DNA of 64,000 nucleotides, taken from contig CDLV01000012.1 in assembly GCA_001244265.2 (NCBI GenBank), positions 1,364,001-1,428,000 of the forward strand, written 5' to 3'. A program made the translations under genes and the position numbers. Below are positions 43,014-59,500 of this stretch, in pieces. The stretch is from Microbotryum violaceum. Taxonomy: Eukaryota. Below the pieces are notes generated by a model. That model had not been told where the DNA came from. It searched no databases and saw only the letters and a program-made list of their open reading frames with translations. Each line of letters starts with the position of its first letter. Positions within the stretch are counted from its first letter, which is position 1.

Positions 43014-45134
43014 CTACTCCGAGTGAAGTTGCAATCCAAGATACTCTCTCATCTTGTTTTGCATGTCCTCCATCAAAGCTTTGGTTCGTTCTAGATGGTC
43101 TAGAAGGAGGCCCCAGGTGGGAAAGAAACGTGCGAAGATGTCAAACACCTTTCCTTCCGCTGGATCGAGCTCGCGAACAGCTTCGAGCAGCTGATTGCAC
43201 TTGCGTTGGTCTTGGACGTAATTGCTCCAAAGGTTCAGACGAGAGGCGAGAAAGCCCAAGGACGGTTGCGCGCGCATCGGCGCCAGGCACAGCGCGCTCC
43301 AGACCCCGGTGCCCGTCGATTCCTCCCAGAAAGCACCCAAGACGAGCATGAACCAGTACGTCGCCGACTCTAGATCCTTCACCAGAATGTGAGATGGGAG
43401 ATCCATCCAACCTTCCTTGAGAATCCAGAGAAGAACGCTGAAGGGGGTCGTGGTGAGCGTCACCCTGACGGATTCTTCACTGCGGTCATCTGCAACACAT
43501 ATCCGGGACGGGCTCATCCCAGGGTGCAACAATGGCCGTGTCCCAATCGACCAGAACGAGATGCCCTCGATAGTGCAGAATGTTGCCGAGCGACAGGTCG
43601 CGATGGTGAATGCCGAGATCGAAGAGAACCGGTAGAAGCGTGAGTAGCTGGTGGAAAACATGGTACGCATCCTTGAGCGGGTCGCGTCGACTCGCAGCGC
43701 GGTCAACTTGAACTCGGGTGGGAAGCGGAATAGGATTGCGCAGAATGAGCATGTCAAGTTTCCGTCGCTGAATCCGTTGTTGAGATTATTCTTCCGGCAG
43801 GCTCGTGTCCCTCATTTGCGAGCAATGAAGGCCGAACGACTTGGCCGTCTCTAGACGAGCGGTGTGCAGAGGCTGAGGATCAGCGCTGACAGTTCGGGAG
43901 AAGCGGACGCACACGCTGCTCAATCATTCGCAAAACCCTCGCATCGGACTCGACGCAATTGGGCGTATTGTGTTGGATCTTGAGCACGAAAGACGGTCTT
44001 GGAGCTGAAGCCGACGATGGCACCATGAGGCTTAGTCGAGTCAGCTGGCGCACACCGGTGCTGCGGCTAAAGATGGACCCGCCACTTGCATCTGCGGAGT
44101 CGATGAGCTTGGCAGGCTCCTCGTCAATGAAATCGACGGTGCGGCCGATGAAGGGAGCATCGTCTACGACTTCTCGAAGGTACTTTGGAATGAATGATAT
44201 GGGTGTGAAACCAGTACCGATGGGACAGTCGTAGCGGATGAGAGGGCTCAGTCCCGCGGAGTAGATATCGAGTCCCAACAGAACCGAAACAACGACCCCA
44301 AGCTCGCCAAACCCCTCGTCCCAGCAGTCCGAAATGGTAGCGATTCGGCAGGCCTCATGATCGACAACGACGAGATGGGCTGTTGTATCCGTGACGGCAA
44401 GCCCCGGCGCAAACATGCGAGTGGGTTGCCTGAGTACGTGTTGCCCCACGTCGAGAACCGTATCGGCTATGGGAGAGGGGGTGTGATCCGCAAGCTCCTC
44501 CATGACCGCACCGACGCGGCAATGTATAGGGACGAGCATACCATGCGCGTCAGACCCATTGTCAGCCGAAGCCGAAAGATCGCAGCACGTCAGAAATGGT
44601 GGAGTTGGGTCTTCTGAGGTTGGGGCCTTCCAGGCTTTTTGTCGCAGGTGAATCGAGGACGTCGTTGCGCGTGCGCGAGCGTCAAAGTCTGATGACGACC
44701 ACCGGCAGTTGCCTGTAGCAACGGACGACAATCGAGACGGTGGTCAGACTTACTGTATGTTCTCATCTCCAGCGAAGGGTTCTCGACTCAAGGCGGATGA
44801 TACTCACAAACTCGGCAAGCGACAGTACCCATTCTGCCTTCGTTTCGTTCGCAGACTGTCCGCAATCGCGTATGAAGTCATGCCGAAGCGATGCTCGGCC
44901 GGGACGATTCTGAACATGTTAAGCGCGTTCGAATCAGAACCGGTCTCGCTCGATGCCAGCGACCGAATTCATCAAAGCAGAGCTCTCGCACATCACGATA
45001 CGTGATATGATCTCGTCTTCGAGGAAGTATCGGTCGGCATCACGGTCCAGCGGATGCGACGTTAGAGCCTCGATCACATTGTCGTTTGCCGAAGTGTGGC
45101 GCGTTTCTGTTGGCGCCTCTGATTGTCGCGTTCA
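43014..45134 (-). pseudogene. Fungal-type protein kinase (FunK1/Pkinase_fungal) pseudogene, copy A
   Basis: QPTRMFAPGL..VVVDH, FSRSTGV, FVLK, IHHRDLSLGNIL..VDWD and KDLES motifs. In-frame stops, frameshifts near 43490 and 43860-43915, intron 44807-44713, and no start codon. Confidence 0.85.
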
Positions 45135-47255
45135 CCTCAATCGCCACCCTCGCGCGCTCGCGCTCGCGCTCACCACATTCCCCTGCGGATAACAGTCCGG
45201 TGCGCGATAGAGTAGTCGAGGTTCTTCTTCCGGCTCCGCTGGACAGTGACATGGACCGCGACTTCCTCGAGGAGGAGCTCATCCCACGCATCGTGATGTG
45301 CGACACCTCCGATCTGCTGTACTCGGTCTTTGGCACCGAGCGAGACCGGTTCATCGAACGCGCTTAACATGTTCAGAATCGTCCCGGCCGAGCATCGCTT
45401 GGGCACGACTTCATGCGCGATTGCAGACGATTGACGAACCAAGCGAAAGCAGACTGGGTAGTTCCGCTTGCCAGCTTTGTAAGTGTGACGTGATCGCATT
45501 TGACTTGAAATGCGAACCCGAGATGACATTAATTGCAGCGCATTCGCCTCCCCAGGCAACCGCTGGCGGTCGACAACAAAAATTGACGCTCGCACATGCG
45601 CTCCAGCGAACTCGATGGTCCTGCGACGGGGAGTCTGAGGAAACCGAAGTTTATCATTTCTTCACGGGTTGCGAGCGACTGGCGTCGGAGAATCACGGTT
45701 CCGCCGCGCATAGAATGCTTGTCCCGATTCATTTCGGGGTCACGCCACTTGCTGAGGCATCTCATGACGGCATTCCTCCCTTCGTCAGGGTCGCGTTCGA
45801 CATGGCGCAATATGCGCTCGAGCAACCGGCCCGCCTATTTGTGTCGGGTCTTGCCGTTACGAGGACCACGGCTAACCTCGTCGTGATCGATCATGAGGCG
45901 TGCCGGATCGCGACCCTCTCGGACTGCTAGGGTGAGGGCTTCGGTGAGCTCATGCGGTGATTGTTGCGGTTTTGTCGGGGCTGGACGTCTACTCCGCGGC
46001 ACTGTGCCCTTTCGTGCGCTACGAATGTGCTGGCAACATCGGTTTCAAGGCAGTATCATTCATCACATGGTACCTTCGAGCTCCCGAGCTCGAAGACGAT
46101 GTCCCTCTCGTCGCTCGCACCCTCGAGTTCATTGACGAGGAACCCGTCGAGCTCCTCAGCTGCGCAGTCGCGCGCGGCGGATCAAACTTCAGTCGCAGCA
46201 CCGCTGTGTTTCAGCTGACCCGTCCAAGTCTGATGGGGCCCAATACGTCTTCTATATCCGATCCACCGCACTCCTTTGTACTCAAAATTCAACACACCAG
46301 ACACGGGTGCGTCAGGCACGAGGCTAATGTGCTACAAATGATCGAAGAGCGTTGTGTATCCGCTGCGTCGCAGGAAGTGTCGGCTTTGATCTTTAGCCAC
46401 ATCAACCGTCTCGAACATGCCAAGTCGTTCGATCTTCATTGCTCGCAAATGAACGACAGCGACTTTTCGCTGGTGGAAGGAAGGGATTCTCATCGACGAG
46501 TACGACGGCGCAAACTGGCCCTGCTCATCCTACGCAATCCCACTCCGCTGCCCACGCTGGTTAATTGCGGTCAAGATCGTTCCCGCCCGGTGGAGGACGC
46601 TTACCAAGTTTTCGACCAGCTGCTCACGCTTTTACCGCTTCTCTACGATCTCGGCATCCACCATCGCGACTTGTCGCCAGGCGACATCCTGCAGTATCGA
46701 GGACACCTTGTTCTGGTCGATTGGGATACTGGAATCGTCGCGCCCCTGGGGGAACCTGTCCCGATAGGTGCAACCAATGGTACCGGGTCGGTCAGGGTCA
46801 ACCTCGCTACGACTCCCTTCGATGTGCTCGCCTGGTTTTTTTTGAAAGGCCAGACCAGAATACCAACGCACATACTGGCGAACGATCTAGAATCCGCGAC
46901 CTACTGGTTTGTGACCGTTCTGCGCTCGTTCCGGGTGCAGTCGTGGGAAACTGCCGCTTGGAGGGCATGGAAGGCGTTGGATTTACCACCGGGCAACCCA
47001 ACGTTCGTGAGAGCTCTTGTGCATGCGCGTTTGGAACTGTGGGGCAACAGCGGCGAGAGCTAGTGCCGGCGCATTGCACTCCTCGAAGCTTTGCGAGATC
47101 TCTGTCCGGCGGAAGGCCCGGTGGTGGACATGTTCACGCGTATCCTCCCCGTCTGGCGTGACATACTGAACATTTATCAACTCACCAAAGAAAGGATAGC
47201 AACAATGCAGGCCAAGATGTGAGACATTCTCGCATTGCAGCCTCGCTCCGAGTAG
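45135..47255 (+). pseudogene. FunK1 kinase pseudogene, copy B
   Basis: Same motifs and same intron position (45479-45556) as copy A. Stops at 45365, 45928, 47061 and 47220; the natural end aligns with copy A (LQPRSE* vs LQLHSE*). Confidence 0.85.
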
Positions 47256-47735
47256 TTGTACCCTTTCGTTCTTCTCTGTTCTTTGATGTATCTAGTTCTC
47301 TCCTTCATCGTTGGCGTCCCATCTTGTACCTTTGAAAACCTTCCAGTCGTTAGTAAAGAAGCTTTGCTCCCAAATCTCGGCATCTCTCATCGATGGCCTA
47401 CATGTCACCATAACGATAATCCTTACAAGCCTAGGCACACTTCCGTTACTCCGAACTATTCCCCTCCATCCCACCCAAGTCTCAACCCCTCGATCCAACT
47501 TCTTTCCATCGCCCTTCCCCAATTTTCACCCTTCCCTCGCTTTCCAAATCGCATCGACCTGCGCGCGTTCTTCCTCGGTCCACAACTCGTCGTTCCAAAG
47601 CATAGAGCCCGTACCTCGCCGTGTTCCTCTTCCGTCTGGTTCGTATGACATACAGGAGTTTAGTGAGTAATTCTGCACGGAAGTTTCCTCCACCTAGGTG
47701 GCACCACCACCCGAAATGGAAATGCTCACAGGCCA
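45653..47735 (+). repeat. ~2.1-kb direct segmental duplication, copy 1
   Basis: Aligns with 52662-54745 at an offset of about 7010. Confidence 0.93.
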
Positions 47736-50029: not shown

Positions 50030-51498
50030 TCAGAAAATCTTGAACGGATCTGTCCCCCACCCAGCACCCCGGAGAATCAGTGCTGATCAATCCAAACAAG
50101 TCCCGAGTCTTTCAAACTTACACCCCCCCTGCTTGACCTTGAAGATGCTCATCACGACCCCGGCCATGACGACGACGATCGCGGTCCAGATGTACACCCC
50201 GACGCGTTGCTTGACCGGGTCTCTGACCGTCGGCAAGATGTACGCCAACGTGTAGGCCGAGAAACCCAACAGACCATCTAAATGGGGCCAAACGAGTACA
50301 AGAATCAGCGTCGAGCTGGATTCGATCGCTATAGTCGACTGCACTCACAGCAAGCGGCGATGATGTGCGTTTCGGCACCGTACTGGTTCGAGTACCCAGG
50401 TTGGATGTACATCGTCGTACCCTCGCGGGTCATTTGCGAGTAAGGCGGATGACGAATCTGGTTCCACATGTAGCCACCGTTCATCAATAAGATGATAGAC
50501 TGTGATTTGTAATCGGGATGCGGGGGCAAGGTCAGTTTCGATTTGGGCAAGCAGGTAAGCGAGTGCTTACCAGAACACCAGCGGCCCAGATATAAGTCTG
50601 CGACGCGATGAGGTACAACACCGACGAAGCCTTCCAGATCGTCAATCCGAGCGAGACGAAGATGAAGACGGTGCCGAACGCCTTGGTGCGGTCGATGGGA
50701 CGCGAGAAGGAGATGGGCACCTGCGCGTTCGCCTTGAGCCACGACGAGATCCCTTCGGCATTGTAGCCTCTGTTTTTGGGCAGTGTCCAAGGCGAATAAG
50801 TGGGACTGATATTTGAATTTCCATGTCGGGTAGAGAAGGCTCACAATCGACTCAGGTCGGTGGTGATGGGAGAGGAGCGAGCGCCTTCACTTCTCGGTCC
50901 TTCGGTCGGCAGGAACGTTTGGAACGTCGGAGCAGTTTGTAGTCCAAGCTGATCAATGCTTGTGTCAGCTGAGAAACCCTAGCATAGAGCAGCTGCAGTA
51001 CAACGCTCGGCCCCACACGCTCCCCCGCCGACGCACCCTCTGGTAGATCTGCTGACCATCGACGAAATCGAGCACGGCGAAAAAGTGGTTCTCGTCGACC
51101 TTCTTTTGTTGACTCTGCCATTGCTTGGCCAAGAGGTCGTACTCGGGTTGGACTTGGCTGGGGGCAGGAAAGCGGAGACGAGCGAGCGTAGATCGGGAGC
51201 GCCACGTCGCCACGTCGTCGTCGTCGGATCAGCCCGAATTTCCTCCATCGCCCAGCAGGTACAGCACCACTCACTGGCAGGGTTGACAATTGAACTGCTT
51301 CCCCATGGCGGTCAACAAGATGCTGACACTGTAATCGCGAGGGGACTGGGTGATGTGGTCGTACAGTGCCGTATCGAGCTTGATGAGCCCATTGCGTTGC
51401 AAGCTGCGGAACTTGGCCGCGTCATAGTTCTCGGACTTTTGCGCGAAGACGAGCAGCGGAGCTGAAGCAGCTAGTGCTGCGACGAGTCGGATCAGCAT
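50030..51498 (-). CDS. OST3: Oligosaccharyltransferase OST3/OST6 (gamma) subunit
   Basis: Signal peptide, PRDYSVSILLTA, thioredoxin-like CQPC, FFAVLDF, GGYMWNQIRHPPY, NQYGAET and spliced C-terminus FKVKQGGYPFKIF. Confidence 0.9.
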
Positions 51499-52661
51499 CG
51501 TCGAGCGGGTGCGTTCGACGGTGTAGCGACGCAGGGAAGGACGACGACCCCGTGCTGTAGTGCTGGGCCAGCGCGACGCACTCGACACAATCCTCGACTT
51601 AGCGCGCGCGCGGCTCGTTCGAAAGCGCGCCGAGTTTGCGCAAGAGCCCATTGCAGTGGCACGGACTCGGACGAGTCGGAGTCGCCGCCGCTCAATTGGT
51701 GGAAACATTTGCTCCTCGATAATCTTCATTGGGCTCATCGCCAAGTCCAGCAACGCCCTCACTTGCTCATGCGCGCCCTCGACCGCCAGTGTCGACTAGG
51801 GGCCGAGTGACTCCGAGTCAGCGCGAACTTTCACTGACGACTGGCCCTCATCCCATCCCACCCTCACACCAAGACGATATATTATTCAAAACAATCTGTT
51901 TATTTAATCAAAATGTTCTACTGTTCAGGTTGCAGGAGTATCTTGGTGAGTGCTGTGTCGTCTTACGTCACGCCGAGCGCACCCTTATCACGTGACACTC
52001 GCTCCTCCACCCCCACCCCACACGCCGGCCGGATTGGCAGCCTATCACCACGAGCCTACCCTGCGCCACACCCCACTCGAACCACCTTTGTACCATTCCT
52101 GACCGACGATTTGATGAAGCGTGGTTTTGACCTCCATTACCTGGTGGGGGATTGTGCACTCATCGCGACCTTACCTCGCCGGGTGTTCACACCCCCACAT
52201 TCGCAATGACACCTGAGTCGTGCGGCCCTCGGCGACGATTGATGGGTATTGCAGCATACTCTTGGTACTGCGACTGTCGTTGAACCGTTAGTAGACCATG
52301 ACCAATCATTCTCGTGACTGAGGCTTTTGACAGACCTCGATGGATGACTTCGATCACCTCAACATCGTCGGTGAAATTTGTGAGAAAAGCGTCCCACTTG
52401 GTCTCAGCAAATGCAAGACGGACAACGGTCAGCTCCCTATGACGCACACCATTTCGCGTCTCTGATGATCTCCAGCTCGGCTCGATCGGTGCACTGACAC
52501 AGTCGTTCGCCAAGGTATCACTCCTACGACTTTTCGAGCGTCCAAGCTCAAACGCTGAGGCACGCTCGGAGAGCCTTGATGAGAGGTGCTGAAGTTATAG
52601 GGATTCATTAATCACTAACAACATATTTTTTTCGTTGCAAAGTATAGTACGAAGAAAAACC

Positions 52662-54266
52662 ATCATTTTTTCACGTGTTGCGAGCGACTGGCGTCGGAGA
52701 ATCACGGTTCCGCCGCGCCTAGAATGCTTGTCCCGATTCATTTCGGGGTCACGCCACATGCTGAGGCAACAACTGGTGATGGCACCCTGTCTCCCCTCGT
52801 CAGGGTCGCGTTCGACATGGCGCAAAAAGCGCTCGAGCAACCGGCACGCTTATTTGTGCCGGGTCTTGCCGTTACGGGGACCACGGCTCACCTCGTCGTG
52901 ATCGATCATGAGGTGTGCCGGATCGCGACCATCTCGGTCGGACTGCTGGGGTGAGGGCTTCGGTGAGCTTGCGGTGATTGTTGCGCTTCTGTCAGGGCTG
53001 GATGTCTACTCCGCAGGACGGTGCCCTTTCTTTCGCTACGAGTGTGCTCGTAACATCGGTTTCAAGGCAGTATCACTCATCACATGGTACCTTCGAACTC
53101 CCGAGCTCGAAGACGATGTCCCTCTCGTCGCTCGCACGGTCGAGTTCATTGACGAGAAACCCGTCGAGCTCCTCAGCTGCGCAGTCGCGCGCGGCGGATC
53201 AAACTTCAGTCGCAGCACCGCTGTGTTTCAGCTGACCCGTCCAAGTCTGATGGGGCCCAATACGTCTTCTATATCCGATCCACCGCACTCCTTTGTACTC
53301 AAAATTCAACACACCAGACACGGGTGCGTCAGGCACGAGGCTAATGTGCTACAAATGATCGAAGAGCGTTGTGTATCCGCTGCGTCGCAGGAAGTGTCGG
53401 CTTTGATCTTTAGCCACATCAACCGTCTCGAACATGCCAAGTCGTTCGATCTTCATTGCTCGCAAATGAACGACAGCGACTTTTCGCTGGTGGAAGGAAG
53501 GGATTCTCATCGACGAGTACGACGGCGCAAACTGGCCCTGCTCATCCTACGCAATCCCACTCCGCTGCCCACGCTGGTTAATTGCGGTCAAGATCGTTCC
53601 CGCCCGGTGGAGGACGCTTACCAAGTTTTCGACCAGCTGCTCACGCTTTTACCGCTTCTCTACGATCTCGGCATCCACCATCGCGACTTGTCGCCAGGCG
53701 ACATCCTGCAGTATCGAGGACACCTTGTTCTGGTCGATTGGGATACTGGAATCGTCGCGCCCCTGGGGGAACCTGTCCCGATAGGTGCAACCAATGGTAC
53801 CGGGTCGGTCAGGGTCAACCTCGCTACGACTCCTTTCGATGTGCTTGCCTGGTTCCGCATGGAAGGTCAGACCAAACTACCAACGCACATACTGGCGAAC
53901 GATCTAGAATCCGCGACCTACTGGTTTGTGACCGTTCTGCGCTCGTTCCGGGTGCAGTCGTGGGAAACTGCCGCTTGGAGGGCATGGAAGGCGTTGGATT
54001 TACCACCGGGCAACCCAACGTTCGTGAGAGCTCTTGTGCATGCGCGTTTGGAACTGTGGGGCAACAGCGGTGAGAGCTAGTGCCGGCGCATTGCACTCCT
54101 CGAAGCTTTGCGAGATCTCTGTCCGGCGGAAGGCCCGGTGGTCGACATGTTCACGCGTAACTTCCCCGCTTGGCGCGAAGTACCGAACGTTCATCAACTC
54201 ACCAAAGAAAGGATAGCAACAATGCAGGCCAAGATGAGAGACATTCTCGCATTGCGGAACGAGTAG
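52662..54266 (+). pseudogene. FunK1 kinase pseudogene, copy C (5'-truncated)
   Basis: Near-identical to copy B. A 4-bp TCGG duplication near 52935 shifts the frame, and the TAG at 54078 is shared with copy B. Confidence 0.88.
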
Positions 54267-54745
54267 TTGTACCCTTTCGTTCTTCTCTGTTCTTGCTGAT
54301 GTATCAAGTTCTCTCCTTCATTGTTGGCATCCATCTTGCACCTTTGAAAAACTTTCAGTCTTTAGTGAAGAAGCTTTGCTCCCAAATCTCGGCATCTCTC
54401 ATCAATGGCCTACATGTCACCATAACAATAATCCTTACAAGCCTAGACACACTTCCGTTTACTCCGAACCAGTCCCTTCCATCTCACCCAACTCCCAACT
54501 CCCTCGTTTTCAACTTCTTTCCATCGCCCTTCCCCAATTTTCACCCTTCCCTCGCTTTCCAAATCGTATCGACCTGCGCATTCTTCGTCCACAACTCGTC
54601 GTTCCAAAGCATAGAACCCGTACCTCGTCGTGTTCCTCTTCCGTCTGGTTCGTATGACATACAGGAGTTTAATGAGTAATTTTGCACGGAAGTTTCCTCC
54701 GCCCAGCTGGCACCACCACCTGAAATGGGAAATGCTCACAGGCCA
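52662..54745 (+). repeat. ~2.1-kb direct segmental duplication, copy 2 (kinase body plus F-box 3' end)
   Basis: Aligns with 45653-47735 and ends exactly where the TIR element begins. Confidence 0.93.
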
Positions 54746-54893
54746 CATCAGCAAAATGGGCACACGCGCTTAAGCTCGAGGACGTCTTGTTAAGCGCGCT
54801 TAAGCGCCTCTAAGCGGTGCGTGCCTTTAACCCGGCGTTATCTACGGATCGCATAATGGTGCTTAGTGGCCGCTTAAGAATGCGCGCGTTATG

Positions 54894-55203
54894 CTTTGCA
54901 CAGAGTCTTGCCAATAGTAAGGCCGTTGGCAACCAGGGTGTCGAGATCGGCGGCTTTGGGAAAGCGGAGGCCGTGCTGACCCTTGATGACACATGACATT
55001 GCGCCGGTAAGGGCAGGGTAGTGTTTGTCAAGCGCGAGGAGGACTTGCTCGACCGAGGTTGAGGGTGGGGTGTTGATGATGACACAATTCTCGATGTTGT
55101 GCATCAGTGGATGGGCGGCGACGGCAGTCGAGACGTTGGCGGTGGCGTTTCCGTGCTTCGCAGCGGAGCGGGCGCCGACCGCGGCGGAGTATGATTTGGT
55201 GGT
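54894..55203 (-). mobile_element. Non-LTR retrotransposon ORF1 fragment (inverted copy)
   Basis: 310-bp reverse complement of 55395-55704 with about 8 mismatches by eye. Confidence 0.7.
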
Positions 55204-55292
55204 AGCTTGGTGGTGGTGGTTTTTCGGAGTGACGTGATTTAAAATCACTGCGCACTCTTAATTCCTTTGTCCACTACCACTCTCCGGCAGAC

Positions 55293-55999
55293 ATGGACAA
55301 CAACAACAACAACATCAACAACGCCAGCCCTGCTGCTGCTATACCACCTCTTCGCCCTGACCCTCCCGATCCTCCCGGCCAAGCCCCCGCCACCACCACC
55401 AAATCATACTCCGCCGCGGTCGGCGCCCGCTCCGCTGCGAAGCACGGAAACGCCACCGCCAACGTCTCGACTGCCGTCGCCGCCCATCCACTGATGCACA
55501 ACATCGAGAATTGTGTCATCATCAACACCCCACCCTCAACCTCGGTCGAGTAAGTCCTCCTCGCGCTTGACAAATACTACCCTGGCCTTACCGGCGCAAT
55601 GCCATGCGTCATCAAGGGTCAGCGCGGCCTCCGCTTTCCCAAGGCCGCCGATCTCGACACCCTGGTGGCCAACGGCCTTACTATTGGCAAGACTCTGTGC
55701 AAAGTCGAGAAGCTGTACAGCTCTACTAAAGGAGGTGTTGTACAATGCACCCTTACGGGCTTTTTCTCCGACTCAGGGCCTCCGCCTGTTCGATGAGCAG
55801 ATCGCTGCCTATGGCACGGTCCTCCGCCGTAGTATCCAATACATTGGAAAGACGAAACATATCTCTGGGGTGTACGACTTTATCCTTGCCCTTAAGGATG
55901 TAGATGTTTTTCCCCCTGCCTCACTTTCTATTGCTCGTGACGGTGTTACTGAGCGAATCCCACTGAGGATCACCGGTGGCATGCGCCACTGCGTCTTCC
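55293..55999 (+). mobile_element. Non-LTR retrotransposon (L1/Tx1-like) ORF1 5' fragment, inactivated
   Basis: PPDPP, KSYSAAV, an RRM-like AAYGTV region, and an end at the zinc-knuckle start RHCVF. TAA at 55551 and a frameshift near 55778. Confidence 0.65.
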
Positions 56000-56525
56000 G
56001 CCCTGCGAAGCGTTAATCGACGGCCTCGCGCGTGCCCATTTTGCTGATGCACTAGTATGACGGTGGATGCGCTGGGATGTGACGGAATGGTCCCTGAGAT
56101 GGTCAGGTGATATATGTGGAGCCAAGAGGAGCCACTTCGATAGCCCAGGTTGCCGGTTGAGTCCGCATGGCCGGTTGCTAGAGGCGATAGGACTTGCTTG
56201 GAGACGACCAACAGGCGAGCTGAGCGAGACCACGCGAAAGCGCGAGCTCGATTCTGCCTGTTTCTGCGTCAAGTATTCTGGTTTTTCGCCAAGTGACTGC
56301 TCTCTCGCTGACGAGTGACATGAGTTAAACGTATGGCTCCACATATACATATCATAACACCAACAGCAGGGTGTGGGAAATACCAAATTGTCACAACAGT
56401 GCGAGTGTGGGGTGTATTGAGGAGTCTACAATTCTACCAGCTGTCTATGATATGTTATAATACGTGCATAATCCGAGAGACGATGAAAGGAAAGGTAAGA
56501 ACACAACCAATCACCTGCACTCCCC

Positions 56526-59500
56526 CTATCTTTGCCCAGCCGCTGCAGCCGCCGCTCTCGCCGCGGCCTCGGCCTCCTCCCTCTTCTTCTTACTGGACCC
56601 ACTCGGCGCCACACCCCCCAACAACTTCTTCTTGTCATTGGCTGAATAATTGATAAACATCGGGGCCAAGCCGCCCGACTTCTTGGTTCGCACCGTAGGC
56701 ACTGCTGGAGAGGACATTGAGCTTGTCAAAGGCGGTCGAACGGGGGATGGTGGGGGTAAGGGAACCGTGGACTTGGGTGGGGAGATGCGGGCTCTCTTAG
56801 TCGGTGATTTGGGTGGAGAGATGGGGGAGTCGGGTTGTACAAATGTATCGCTCGAATCCACCATGGGCCGGGGCATCGAAGAAGGGTGGTGGTGGGTCGG
56901 GTAGAACGACGACGACGACGAGCCTGCAACTGAAGAAGCAGAGGTAGCTGCGTACCCATAGCTGTACTGCTCCTGCATCGTGTAAGGCGCTCTTTGGGTC
57001 TGGTATTCCGGTGCCTGGTGTTGCTTTTGTTGTTCGGAATATGGGTACGACATCCGATTCGGGTGCTGAGTCGCGGTGTAATATGTCGGATGCGCAGAAA
57101 GACCATCGCTGGACCGACGGCGTCGAACAGGAGACGACAAGCTATCCGAATCGACGGACTCGCGTCGTTGGTACGTTGGCATTGCCGATACTTGGTAACG
57201 AGGTGTCGTCGGTGTAGGTGGCCCGCCGGTGGTGTTGGTCGCGCTGTCGTACTGGTACGCCGCGCCATGGGACCAGCCCATCTGGTGCGAGCCCATCGGC
57301 GCGGTGTACTGCGCAGGCCGAGACGCATACGACACCTGTTGCGACGGATGAGGCCCGCCATACTGCCCCGGCTGAGGACCGGGTTTGAAGGTGGTCTGCC
57401 ACGCCGGTGCAGAAGCAGGGTAAGGTTTAGAACTGTCGTTGAACTGATTGTGGAATTCGGCGTCATCGAGTAAAGCGAGATCCCCTTCGTTTAAAGTCAC
57501 GCCCGAGATCTCGAAGCTCGCAATGCCGAAATTCGCTGGAGATGACAGGCTATTCTGCATCCTCGACGGGATCGAAAGGTGTGGTGCACCTCGCGGTGAG
57601 CGAAGGGGAACGATGGGTCGACCCGGGGAGGACGACATCGCCTCCTGCATCGACTGGGAAGCGCCGCCTCCTTCGGGCCCGAGAAAGTTGTCGAGCTGCC
57701 CGAGCAATTGTTCCATATCGCGCTGCGAGGCCGCCTGTTGGGTCGGAGTCATCGGTCGAGTAGAACCGGCCTCGGGGCACGAGGGGTATGGGCTGCTCGG
57801 CGACGCCAGTCCCCCGGGAAGCGGGTGTGCTCGATTGGGCTGCTGCTGCAGGTAATTGGGCGGGACTTCGATGCTCAGGCGCGAAGCCTGGCGCCTCACC
57901 TTGGGGCTCGTCTCGATCTTGATAGGTGCTGGACGATGCGAAGAGCGTCTTCCGAACAGCGAGGTTTTAACGGATTGAGCTTCACCATTTGACGACGAAG
58001 CGCGCAACAAGGGCGACGACTCCACCAGCACCAGGTCGGCATGGGTCTGCGAAAGCAGTGGGGGTGCCGAGGCATATGACGTAGCCGAACTGGGACTGGC
58101 CGACGAGGCATTCGAATCATGCGAGGCAGACCTATACAGTGCGTCTAAAAGTCGCGAGGTGGGTTGGGGACGAGCGCAGGTGAAACAGGATGTGGAGTCC
58201 GGGGCGAAAGGAAGGGACAAAGGAGGGGGATTAGCTCGGCTCGAGCTCCTGACTTCAAATCGACCTGGCGCGCGCGCAGCGTTGGTACCCGGCGACCGAG
58301 ACGTGGGCAAGTGAATGCTCAAGTCCTCTTCAACCTCGATGCATCGAGCATGGAAACATGGAAACATGGAAACACTACTCGTCGAGAGGTCGAATCGCGG
58401 TGGGGTGTCCTCGGGGGAGCCCCTCCGCGAGAATTCTGGTGGCACCAAAGGATCCCCACGAGCGCGCGCAATAAAGGCGCCGTGACTTACCCATTTGGGA
58501 AGGCGCGACGAACAACGACGGCCTTGGAGGCGTTGACGAAGTGGACATTAAACCCGACGCGAGCACGTCGTGGCTTTGAGAGTGGTGCTGACACTGCTGT
58601 TGGGGTAGCGATGGTGGTAACTGCTGTTGCAAGTAAACGTCTTGCATCTCCACGAACGCACTGCTGACATGAACTGAGGTCGGGCGGGTCGAGGAGCGCG
58701 GAGGAGGCAGAGGGGCACAACGTGACCTCCCTGCGAGCGGAGAGCCGAGCGGTCCAACGCTGCTGACGCTGCTGTAGTTCCTGTTCGGCGTCAAAGTACC
58801 ACTGGGCAGCGAAATGCGCCTCCTGTTGATCACAGTCGGCGAAGGTGGGGGCGAATAGTCGTATAGCGTCGCCGAAGCCGCGGTCGGGGTCCCGGTCGAG
58901 GCCGACGAAGCGATCGATGCGGCAGGCGAGAGCTCCGGGGTTCCTTCCGTCGAGGAAGCGGAGCCCGGATCAAAGAACGACGGCGACGACCAGTGCTGCT
59001 GCTTTCTTTGTTGCTGGAGGTATTGTCCCGGTTCAATGTATGAAGATCGACGAAGATGGGACTGCGGATGCAATGAATGCTCGGGAACGCGAAAAGAGGC
59101 AGAGCGAGGCAGAGATGCCGAAGGAAATGCCGCCGTCAACGACGACGATGAGGATGGCCATGGCCCCGGGGCGAGATTGCACTCGCAATTTAGGCGGTCC
59201 AGATCGAGCCCGCGCGCACCATGCGTAGGGTGCAGAGCCTGACCCTCCTGTGCCGCGTCACGAGGAGCCGCGCGTCGAGCAACCGTAAAGCCTGTTGTCT
59301 CGCTAGAGCAAAAGGACAGGCCGTCGCCTTCGCCGCCGCGGCGCATCGCAGGCTCGATCAAGTCTTGCCAGTCGGCTGGCGCCGCCCGTTCCATCGCCGA
59401 GCCTGAAGTCGAGCTTGCGAAACTAACAGATCTGGGCGTCGTCTCCCACAGCTCGTCGGGACGAGGGTGTGTTAAGAGTGGCTCTGAATCGGTAGCAGAT

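Follow-up and report, generated by a model that had tools for sequence, protein, structure and literature searches.

Pack-MULE and other Pack-type elements are bounded by terminal inverted repeats (TIRs), have no transposase, and carry foreign cargo; they are defined by amplified copies that share the same cargo and bear target site duplications (TSDs). Among LINEs, the 5′ inversion of L1 by twin priming gives insertions that are anchored at the 3′ end and truncated at the 5′ end, with little or no duplicated sequence.

The Ds-like elements of maize (Ds-l4/Ds2), as described by Du et al. (2011, PMC3260210), also have no transposase and retain their TIRs and short ends around a foreign interior, which is drawn from genes, retrotransposons (including LTR retrotransposons), and other transposons. 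Most of those described there do not respond to the autonomous element. Mu killer, again from maize, is presented in PMC3440606 as a naturally occurring locus in which part of a transposon gene's 5′ region is duplicated in inverted orientation, next to a gene from which a long read-through hairpin RNA is potentially made. The duplicated sequence, which takes in the TIR, belongs to the very DNA transposon that is silenced, and the hairpin RNA, the siRNAs, and the heritable silencing are reported there as demonstrated. Lastly, the Ac/Ds composite insertions described by Wang et al. (10.1101/2020.01.07.897926) are aberrant DNA-transposon events with inverted duplications at the termini and duplications in the flanks; their inverted repeats consist of the transposon's own sequence, and both dsRNA and siRNAs were measured in that work.

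Here, we describe a locus in a 64,000-nt stretch of DNA from the anther-smut fungus Microbotryum violaceum (assembly GCA_001244265.2, contig CDLV01000012.1, positions 1,364,001 to 1,428,000), which we call the window and in which all coordinates are counted. The locus is a TIR-bounded unit without a transposase, which encloses two head-to-head fragments of the 5′ region of a LINE ORF1.

Like the Ds-like elements, the unit has kept its TIRs and short ends around a foreign interior. It differs from them in that no 8-bp TSD and no transposase that would place it in a superfamily were seen, that a LINE 5′ end, duplicated in inverted orientation, makes up the filler, and that the host is a basidiomycete. 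With Mu killer it shares a natural partial inverted duplication of a 5′ region beside a gene, but here the arms come from a LINE, lie inside an element of a different class, measure 310 nt rather than kilobases, and are known from sequence alone. As in the Ac/Ds composite insertions, inverted repeats are found together with a flanking duplication, although these repeats are of an unrelated LINE and their tie to the duplication is a coincidence of coordinates only. The resemblance to Pack-type elements lies in the TIRs, the foreign cargo, and the missing transposase, and it ends at the same-cargo copies with TSDs, which were not found as far as the contigs allow. Finally, an inverted LINE segment lies next to a direct one, as after twin priming, but here the LINE has its 5′ end and no 3′ end, and the duplicated stretch amounts to 310 nt.

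Structure of the Unit

The preliminary description of this DNA had reported 23-bp TIRs with an imperfect extension, a cluster of TTAAGC motifs next to the left TIR, the lack of a transposase, and a head-to-head pair of LINE ORF1 fragments. All of these features stand, except for the extension. The two TIRs (Table 1) match at 22 of 23 positions. When up to three mismatches are allowed, the 23-mer occurs at only two sites in the window, which are the two ends of the element, and none of 100 shuffles gave two matches. An extension beyond 23 nt must be rejected, because the score of the gapped local alignment was reached by 55 of 500 shuffles, and MAFFT aligned nothing further. The junction between the left flank and the TIR is bridged by a short-read contig (54642-54856, with no other letters).

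Table 1. Features of the unit and its neighbors (positions in the window)
Feature	Position	Strand	Remarks
Duplicate of a kinase-like family gene, 5′-truncated, with about 490 nt of 3′ flank	52662-54745	+	Last base directly adjoins the left TIR
Left terminal inverted repeat	54746-54768	+	23 nt; flank/TIR junction supported by X1 contig record 5
Left subterminal region of the TIR element	54769-54893	+	Clustered TTAAGC/GCTTAA(GC) motifs
Left arm	54894-55203	-	LINE ORF1 codons 35-137 in inverted orientation; frame open
Inner spacer	55204-55292	.	5 nt, then GGTGGTGGTGG (55209-55219), further sequence, and a short LINE leader before the ATG
LINE ORF1 codons 1-34	55293-55394	+	ATG, Asn-rich start; within the hairpin loop
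Right arm	55395-55704	+	LINE ORF1 codons 35-137, in-frame TAA at 55551-55553
LINE ORF1 continuation, not duplicated	55705-56002	+	Ends just 5′ of the first CCHC knuckle
Filler	56003-56012	.	10 nt separating the LINE end from the transposon end (contigs have loose ends at 56002 and 56013)
Right end of the TIR element	56013-56049	+	14 nt subterminal and the 23-nt TIR at 56027-56049
Conserved Microbotryomycetes gene	56526-58547	-	Reads toward the element

Six of the 16 copies of TTAAGC/GCTTAA in the window fall within 54768-54877, and this cluster is the densest 155-nt stretch of the window for the motif; the 37-nt right end has none. Repeated subterminal motifs, which count among the marks of class II TIR elements and are present here at the left end, are putative transposase-binding sites. 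In the four element frames tested, Pfam gave no family at E ≤ 0.1. Likewise, an Rfam search of 54000-57000 at E ≤ 0.1 gave 0 matches, and the TIR had 0 exact matches in metagenome contigs.

A scan for lengths of at least 3 nt gave no TSD at the ends listed in Table 1. The only flank match of at least 3 nt is CAC, which requires the left end to be moved by 1 nt; at the listed ends only CA/CA is seen. On the strength of its TIRs, its subterminal motifs, and termini that occur at several loci, we class the unit as a non-autonomous derivative of a class II TIR DNA transposon, with no TSD to go with these traits. Of the 1304-bp unit, only 148 nt on the left and 37 nt on the right are still transposon sequence.

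Between these ends, from 54894 to about 56002, all but some 60-90 nt of the spacer could be assigned to the LINE. The arms form an ungapped inverted repeat of 310 nt with eight mismatches (97% identity) and 191 nt between them. They point apart, with their 5′ ends adjoining. The left arm is an open frame of 119 codons on the minus strand, and the right arm belongs to the frame that opens at the ATG at 55293. At position 55551 the left arm and the family contigs have C, as against the TAA of the right arm. A 2-nt deletion near 55771-55774 changes the frame, and the contigs have two more letters there. After 5 nt of spacer, counted from the left arm, comes the 11-mer GGTGGTGGTGG; it is perfectly complementary to CCACCACCACC (55390-55400), found where the right arm has its inner end.

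A single palindrome spanning both TIRs and arms was considered and rejected, as the centers of the two repeat pairs are about 98 nt apart.

Source of the Cargo

When translated, 55293-55790 has its best relative in P0002, a gene model of 1111 aa from Microbotryum silenes-dioicae, and shares 96% identity with the N-terminus of that model (residues 2-159). Downstream, P0002 has two CCHC knuckles and an RVT_1 domain at 536-677 (33.4 bits, against a cut-off of 29.6). It is important to remember that P0002 is a gene model, so the join of ORF1 and ORF2 in it is the annotator's. The LINE was recognized in an all-against-all protein search alone, not by Pfam. That search gave 25 protein matches, and all five of those that were looked up are Microbotryum proteins. 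The knuckles are visible in P0002, P0003, and P0005, and absent from the fragment in the window. Because this fragment ends at 56002, just before them, it represents only the 5′ part of the LINE ORF1, in agreement with the region first proposed for it. Beyond the end of the fragment, P0002 goes on with CRSAAHVRKDC.

Evidence on copies elsewhere comes from the short-read contigs of public runs, namely two DNA runs (X1 and X11) and two that are guessed to be RNA, and from loose ends of 30 letters. Among the loose ends listed, 56002 is where the LINE contigs of all four runs part from the window to continue with unrelated letters. The collapsed LINE contigs reach a word depth of 1036-1064 in X1, versus 32.5 for the flank contig, and of 641-699 in X11, versus 25.9; this is about 25-33 times the depth of the single-copy flank contig, where depth should not be read as copy number. 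Compared with the dominant LINE contigs, the right arm has an identity of 98.8-99.2%, differing at two of 236 letters (X1 record 6) and four of 338 (X11 record 14). Judged by these protein and contig matches, the cargo comes from a high-copy non-LTR retroelement of Microbotryum, of which it represents the 5′ part of ORF1.

The arms also share differences from this family. At 55465, 55679, and 55683, both carry letters unlike those of the family contigs, with no mismatch between the arms, and P0002 has A and V at sites where both arms have V and I. These shared differences argue that the arms were copied from one source. Five of the arm mismatches change an amino acid, and in four of these five cases the left arm is the one without the family residue seen in P0002. 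RIP-like mutation at TCG was considered as a source of the differences between the arms and is not supported, since the contexts of the eight mismatches, inspected by eye, show no such pattern.

Origin of the Interior

The structure exists in the assembly, and faulty DNA repair is its most likely origin. In the reading that we favor, and which we regard as rather probable, the unit is a solitary derivative of a TIR element whose interior was replaced during break repair by LINE filler and a fold-back. The repair mechanism that we infer from the anatomy would begin with a break, or an excision gap, within a TIR element. The gap would have been filled by synthesis from an ectopic LINE template, which supplied about 1.1 kb, comprising the leader and approximately the first 237 codons of ORF1. 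The new strand would then have folded back on itself, or switched template, at (ACC)n/(GGT)n microhomology, giving the inverted codons 35-137, and the ends would have been joined with few filler bases. The whole may represent one complex repair event, by the same process that produces Ds-like elements with foreign filler DNA. The filling of transposon breaks with foreign DNA by SDSA is described in PMC4423477.

Two signs that are hallmarks of repair can be seen: the 10-nt filler, and the complementary sequences at the inner ends of the arms. At the outer junction (54893/54894), microhomology is at most 1 nt. Retrotransposition was considered and rejected as the source of the unit, because the 5′ end and ATG of the LINE are present, whereas the piece stops near codon 237 and has no 3′ end.

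The same end product is reached by a stepwise history, in which a full-length LINE entered a complete TIR element, later deletions removed the 3′ part of the LINE and most of the interior of the element, and a local inverted duplication made the left arm separately. We consider such a history unlikely. Nesting of TEs is frequent (P0006, for example, fuses the same ORF1 N-terminus with a Helitron helicase), the LINE part does begin at or near the LINE's own 5′ end, as a full-length insertion would, and the LINE family is abundant, with 392 LINE copies reported for M. lychnidis-dioicae in Table 2 of PMC4469406. However, stepwise decay would take three or more independent events, each with its end inside the same 1.3 kb, and the 3′ end of the LINE, its poly(A), and its target duplication are all absent. 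The joins themselves also look like products of repair: the left arm sits directly on the transposon at 54893/54894, and the right join carries the filler.

Flanking Genes and Rearrangement

The unit lies between two genes. The protein of the right-hand gene is 97% identical to a protein of M. silenes-dioicae and 89% identical to one of M. saponariae. Because this gene reads toward the element, the two neighbors converge on it, with their coding ends about 490 nt and about 477 nt away.

The kinase-like gene on the left belongs to a segmental duplication (45653-47735 and 52662-54745). The right ends of the two copies show no homology beyond these limits, and the copy at 52662-54745 stops exactly at the left TIR. 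The other copy was tried as an empty site. It does not qualify as one, because homology stops at 47735/54745; the sequence from 47736 onward has no similarity to that from 56050 onward (score 25, versus a shuffle maximum of 31). Since the duplication stops at the left TIR and the right-hand continuations share no homology, the locus has seen an additional rearrangement that the proposed repair event does not account for, and the two ends of the unit could come from two copies of the element.

A duplication that ends exactly at a TIR recalls rearrangements of the Ac/Ds type.

Potential for Silencing

With RNAi genes in the host and convergent genes on either side of the locus, the unit could physically act through a hairpin RNA in the way Mu killer does. 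For M. lychnidis-dioicae, PMC4469406 reports one Dicer, two Argonautes, and one RdRP, all of them expressed. The arms, 310 nt at 97% identity, give the locus a trait expected of a Mu killer-type silencer, in which the transcribed 5′ region of the target TE is duplicated in inverted orientation. In the predicted MFE structure the two arms are paired along their full length, and a transcript reading through the locus would fold into a dsRNA stem of at least 310 bp.

If the locus were a functional silencer of this kind, which we hold to be improbable, read-through from a convergent neighbor would take in both arms, Dicer would cut the dsRNA into siRNAs, these would repress the LINE family in trans and so dampen it, and selection would keep the locus. 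The siRNAs would match the family, given the identity of the right arm to the dominant LINE contigs. In addition, the same junction contigs are found in two differently labeled organisms (X1 and X11), and loci that act in this way are described in the accounts of Mu killer (PMC3440606) and the Ac/Ds composite insertions (10.1101/2020.01.07.897926). Against a silencer, the upstream gene copy is truncated at its 5′ end and may lack a promoter, and the left arm holds four of the five scorable arm changes, as neutral decay predicts. The LINE family also persists in great abundance. Its contigs reach a depth of 61-78 in the two runs guessed to be RNA, where the neighboring genes have about 2-10; if that guess is right, the LINE does not look like a silenced family. 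The boldest form of the proposal would make the locus a natural basidiomycete hairpin-RNA gene, a cross-class "Mu killer" that damps the most abundant LINE of the genome and is shared among Microbotryum lineages because it is useful, and to this we give little credence. By default, the unit should be regarded as a neutral by-product.

Copies Elsewhere and Mobility

The preliminary description had also put forward a unit that may be mobile with its LINE cargo, and had named other TIR copies without this cargo as a sign against it. Other copies of the ends do occur. Contigs that match up to 56048 and then pass into other flanks number at least one in X1 and at least two in X11 (the X11 pair agree at only 0.65), and the window itself holds no further copy of a TIR end. 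Because both ends occur in other contigs, the TIR family is real; to judge from these contigs, it is a multi-copy family of low copy number. The other copies have different interiors, so the LINE cargo is lacking at both internal junctions. Among the loose ends listed, contigs of both X1 and X11 match from 56013 onward with a different interior, and an X11 contig of another copy matches as far as 54894, beyond which its sequence is unrelated and not LINE.

Mobility with the cargo is not supported: against it stand these interiors, the missing TSD of at least 3 nt, and a single-copy junction. The junction between the LINE and the right end lies in a contig of single-copy depth that runs unbroken into unique flank in both DNA runs. 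In X1 (record 8, 3917 nt, depth 32.5), the contig leads from 55969 in the LINE part through the right end to 57549 in the unique flank, with three other letters; in X11 (record 16, 3961 nt, depth 25.9), it follows the same path from 55969 to 57549, with two.

A Pack-type chimeric element, with unit and cargo mobilized in trans by an autonomous relative and present at several loci, is therefore very improbable. Its termini are recognizable and relatives of its ends do exist, but the right end is only 37 nt long, and as far as the short-read contigs reach, no set of copies was found that share this cargo and differ in their TSDs. It should be kept in mind that these copy counts come from the contigs of two DNA runs, which leaves room for a small number of same-cargo copies. 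The unit is probably a solitary, non-autonomous, and immobile derivative.

Contig cover is uneven. None of the four runs covers 54974-55261, the two runs guessed to be RNA do not cover 54686-55261, and multi-copy contigs are absent from 55118-55261, with depth resuming in the bin 55262-55405. Short-read contigs cannot cross the arms, and these gaps speak neither for nor against transcription or the structure. Across 54974-55261, support for the left arm and for the inner junction comes from the assembly itself. Although palindromes are a known class of artefact and this interval has no short-read contig, a fold-back chimera of long reads is extremely unlikely, as the arms differ by eight substitutions with no indel over 310 nt, unlike an artefactual fold-back, and independent short-read contigs bridge both the left flank/TIR junction and the path from the LINE through the right end into the flank.

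Implications

If the unit is a by-product of repair, which is likely, it would be a clean fungal case of non-autonomous TIR elements gaining foreign interiors. It would also illustrate a chance origin of inverted TE duplications, which are raw material for hairpin silencers. The locus would further mark a rearranged spot beside a lineage-specific, duplicating family of kinase-like genes.

To our knowledge, very few natural, locus-defined triggers of TE silencing are known outside plants and flies. If the hairpin proved to be transcribed and diced, this locus would be one of them. The TE dynamics of Microbotryum are closely studied, owing to the non-recombining mating-type chromosomes of the genus, so the question of how a TE is first recognized would be testable here.

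Architecture of the element

The element is bounded by 23-nt inverted repeats (54746-54768 and 56027-56049) that are complementary at 22 of 23 positions, as the preliminary description had it. A tolerance of up to 3 mismatches places the 23-mer at only two sites in the 64-kb window, both at the ends of the element, and two such matches were found in none of 100 shuffles. The clustering of TTAAGC beside the left TIR is likewise borne out: 6 of the 16 TTAAGC/GCTTAA words in the window fall within 54768-54877, which is its densest such stretch. An imperfect extension of the TIRs past 23 nt had also been claimed and must be dropped, as MAFFT returned none and the gapped local score, reached by 55 of 500 shuffles, is not significant.

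Coordinates of the parts of the element and of its right-hand neighbour (window positions)
Feature	Position	Strand	Remarks
Left transposon end	54746-54893		148 nt
Inverted copy of ORF1 codons 35-137	54894-55203		
Spacer	55204-55292		5 nt, GGTGGTGGTGG (55209-55219), sequence of unassigned origin, short LINE leader
ORF1, ATG to about codon 237	55293-56002		
10 nt of unassigned origin	56003-56012		
Right transposon end	56013-56049		37 nt
Conserved Microbotryomycetes gene	56526-58547	-	Right neighbour; frame ends at 56526; precomputed domain PF28419

Inside the TIRs, the two proposed opposite-facing copies of one ORF1 5' region are indeed present. They form a 310-nt inverted repeat (54894-55203 against 55395-55704, 97% complementary) with 191 nt between the arms, and the LINE copies stand head-to-head, their 5' ends adjacent. 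On the minus strand the left arm reads as an open frame of 119 codons. The frame to which the right arm belongs begins at the ATG at 55293 and is interrupted twice, at 55551 by a TAA and near 55771-55774 by a shift of frame. The GGTGGTGGTGG run of the spacer is exactly complementary to 55390-55400, where the right arm has its inner end. At E ≤ 0.1, no family was found by Pfam in four frames of the element or by Rfam over 54000-57000.

The translation of 55293-55790, with X at the stop, was searched against 1.84 billion representative proteins and gave 25 matches at E ≤ 0.001, 14 at ≤1e-10, and 8 at ≤1e-30. The best of these, P0002 (a 1111-aa Microbotryum silenes-dioicae gene model), is 96% identical over residues 2-159 and then runs into two CCHC knuckles, visible in its sequence, and RVT_1 (33.4 bits; cut-off 29.6). 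By homology, the cargo is therefore ORF1 sequence, from the 5' part, of a non-LTR retroelement. All five matches that were looked up are Microbotryum proteins (two M. silenes-dioicae, three M. intermedium). Pfam, applied to nine matches, placed RVT_1 in one, Helitron_like_N and PIF1 in one (P0006), and no family in seven. P0006, an M. intermedium gene model, joins this same LINE ORF1 N-terminus to Helitron_like_N, PIF1, and Pif1_2B in one annotated protein; it is either a product of gene-model merging or a Helitron in which the 5' region of this LINE is captured or nested.

Eight substitutions, six of them transitions and two transversions, and no indel separate the arms, which argues against a fold-back assembly artefact. 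Five of the differences change an amino acid, and the family residue is retained by the right arm at four and by the left arm at one. Between 55334-56002 and the family contig (record 20 of public run X15 and record 26 of X16) there are 15 letter differences and 2 gaps; the best-supported differences listed, 14 in number, lie within 55465-55947, and 9 of these are T or A in the window and C or G in the contigs. Among the listed differences, both arms carry the same letters at 55465, 55679, and 55683, departing from the family contigs, and both arms read V and I at the two residues that are A and V in P0002. Judged by these shared departures, both arms are copies of a single source.

Copies and junctions in public runs

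Four of the 24 public runs listed for 53746-57049, two of DNA (X1 and X11) and two that are RNA by guess only (X15 and X16), were compared as short-read contigs with 53246-57549 at 88% likeness. The LINE is a high-copy family: the word depth of its contigs, which is not a copy number, is 1036-1064 in X1 and 641-699 in X11, against 32.5 and 25.9, respectively, for the single-copy flank contig. In all four runs the LINE contigs depart from the window at 56002, with other letters beyond, in agreement with P0002, which enters its first knuckle there.

The transposon ends are also multi-copy, and their other copies have a different interior. Among the contig departures from the window that were listed, 14 of 26, the right end is followed up to 56048 and then into other flanks by one X1 contig and two X11 contigs, the latter two showing a mutual agreement of only 0.65 beyond that point. 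Contigs of both X1 and X11 match from 56013 onward with different, non-LINE sequence before, and an X11 contig that follows the left subterminal region turns into non-LINE sequence after 54894.

The chimeric junction between LINE and right end is single-copy. Starting at 55969 in the LINE, two contigs cross both the filler and the right end and reach unique flank: record 8 of X1 (3917 nt, depth 32.5), with 3 other letters over 1581 nt, and record 16 of X11 (3961 nt, depth 25.9), with 2. The left flank/TIR junction is spanned by X1 record 5 (54642-54856, no other letters). No contig from any of the four short-read runs covers 54974-55261, so the left arm and inner junction are read from the assembly alone. 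Of the mobile unit originally proposed, the multi-copy TIR ends stand; given the non-LINE interior of other copies and the single-copy junction, it is highly improbable that the unit moves with its cargo.

The rearranged locus

The element sits between two genes that read toward it, both with their best relatives in Microbotryum; together with the Microbotryum matches of the cargo, this assigns the window to an anther-smut fungus. The left neighbour is one copy of a gene from a kinase-like family specific to Microbotryum (homologues 215-686 aa, the length range searched), and its coding part ends near 54257; the matching protein P0027 has weak kinase-type Pfam matches. This copy is a 5'-truncated duplicate that starts at about residue 121 of P0027. 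It belongs to copy B of a segmental duplication of 2.1 kb and 94% identity (copy A, 45653-47735; copy B, 52662-54745). The duplication ends at the base that adjoins the left TIR, and what follows copy A has no similarity to the sequence that follows the element. Such an end, with unlike right-hand continuations, points to a transposon-associated rearrangement. Because no TSD of at least 3 nt was found flanking the element, and the duplication stops at the left TIR, the locus is rearranged beyond a simple insertion.

Several neighbouring features deserve mention. A third kinase-like paralogue, 71% identical, lies inverted upstream (43351-44454), and copies A and B are separated by a housekeeping gene of ordinary kind, two open frames of which (50329-51795, minus strand) have OST3/OST6 family matches (E 7e-17 and 6e-12). 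An open frame immediately upstream of the duplicated segment (52187-52594, minus strand) has a weak CENP-B_N match (pogo-type HTH; E 0.004; 17.2 bits, below the cut-off of 21.2), which may reflect either what remains of a transposase or chance. To the right of the element, at a distance of 61 nt, stands a perfect inverted repeat of 14 nt with TA-rich borders (56111-56124 and 56334-56347, 209 nt apart) that could be what is left of a small MITE-like element. Because single-copy X1 and X11 contigs pass straight through, it is no multi-copy repeat at this place. By locus-tag numbers, the right-hand gene adjoins kinase-family genes in M. silenes-dioicae and M. saponariae too, and orthologous intergenic regions therefore exist.

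Origin of the cargo

Retrotransposition products are 3'-anchored and usually 5'-truncated. Here the LINE piece has its 5' end and lacks its 3' end, it joins transposon sequence directly on one side and through the 10-nt filler on the other, and the inner fold-back junction lies within an (ACC)n/(GGT)n run. For these reasons we consider a DNA-level origin of the cargo, by repair, reasonably probable. A break or excision gap may have arisen inside a TIR element and been repaired by synthesis that used an ectopic LINE as template and switched template or folded back on the way, with end joining last. Repair products of the same kind are described in plants: in maize, the foreign filler of Ds-like elements derives from genes, retrotransposons, and other transposons (PMC3260210), and in rice SDSA repair puts foreign filler at transposon breaks (PMC4423477). 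The main rival is a stepwise history, in which a full-length LINE became nested in the element and deletions and then a local inversion-duplication followed; we regard it as unlikely.

Potential as a hairpin locus

An RNA crossing the unit would fold into a stem of at least 310 bp, and in the predicted MFE structure the arms are paired end to end. Identity between the right arm and the dominant LINE family contigs is 98.8-99.2%, and M. lychnidis-dioicae expresses its one Dicer, both of its two Argonautes, and its one RdRP (PMC4469406). What inverted-duplication loci can do is illustrated by Mu killer (PMC3440606) and by Ac/Ds composite insertions (preprint 10.1101/2020.01.07.897926). However, the LINE start region lies within the loop and is directed through the right arm only, so a hairpin RNA would require read-through from outside; the upstream kinase-like gene copy is 5'-truncated, the left arm is decaying, and LINE contigs in X15 and X16 (RNA by guess) are much deeper than those of neighbour genes (61-78 against about 2-10). 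A putative functional hairpin silencer is thus very doubtful. Over 55334-56002, the LINE ORF1 contigs of these two runs, again RNA by guess, are 1147 nt at depth 61 and 812 nt at depth 78; if both runs are truly RNA, the LINE family is well expressed.

No such Microbotryum locus is described in the open-access literature searched. The structure is real and neatly resolved, and its potential as a hairpin locus would be testable, if unproven. Both of its ingredients are already known, one being non-autonomous TIR elements that carry foreign filler and the other the inversion and duplication of TE 5' regions by chance; this locus adds an example in a fungus, across TE classes.
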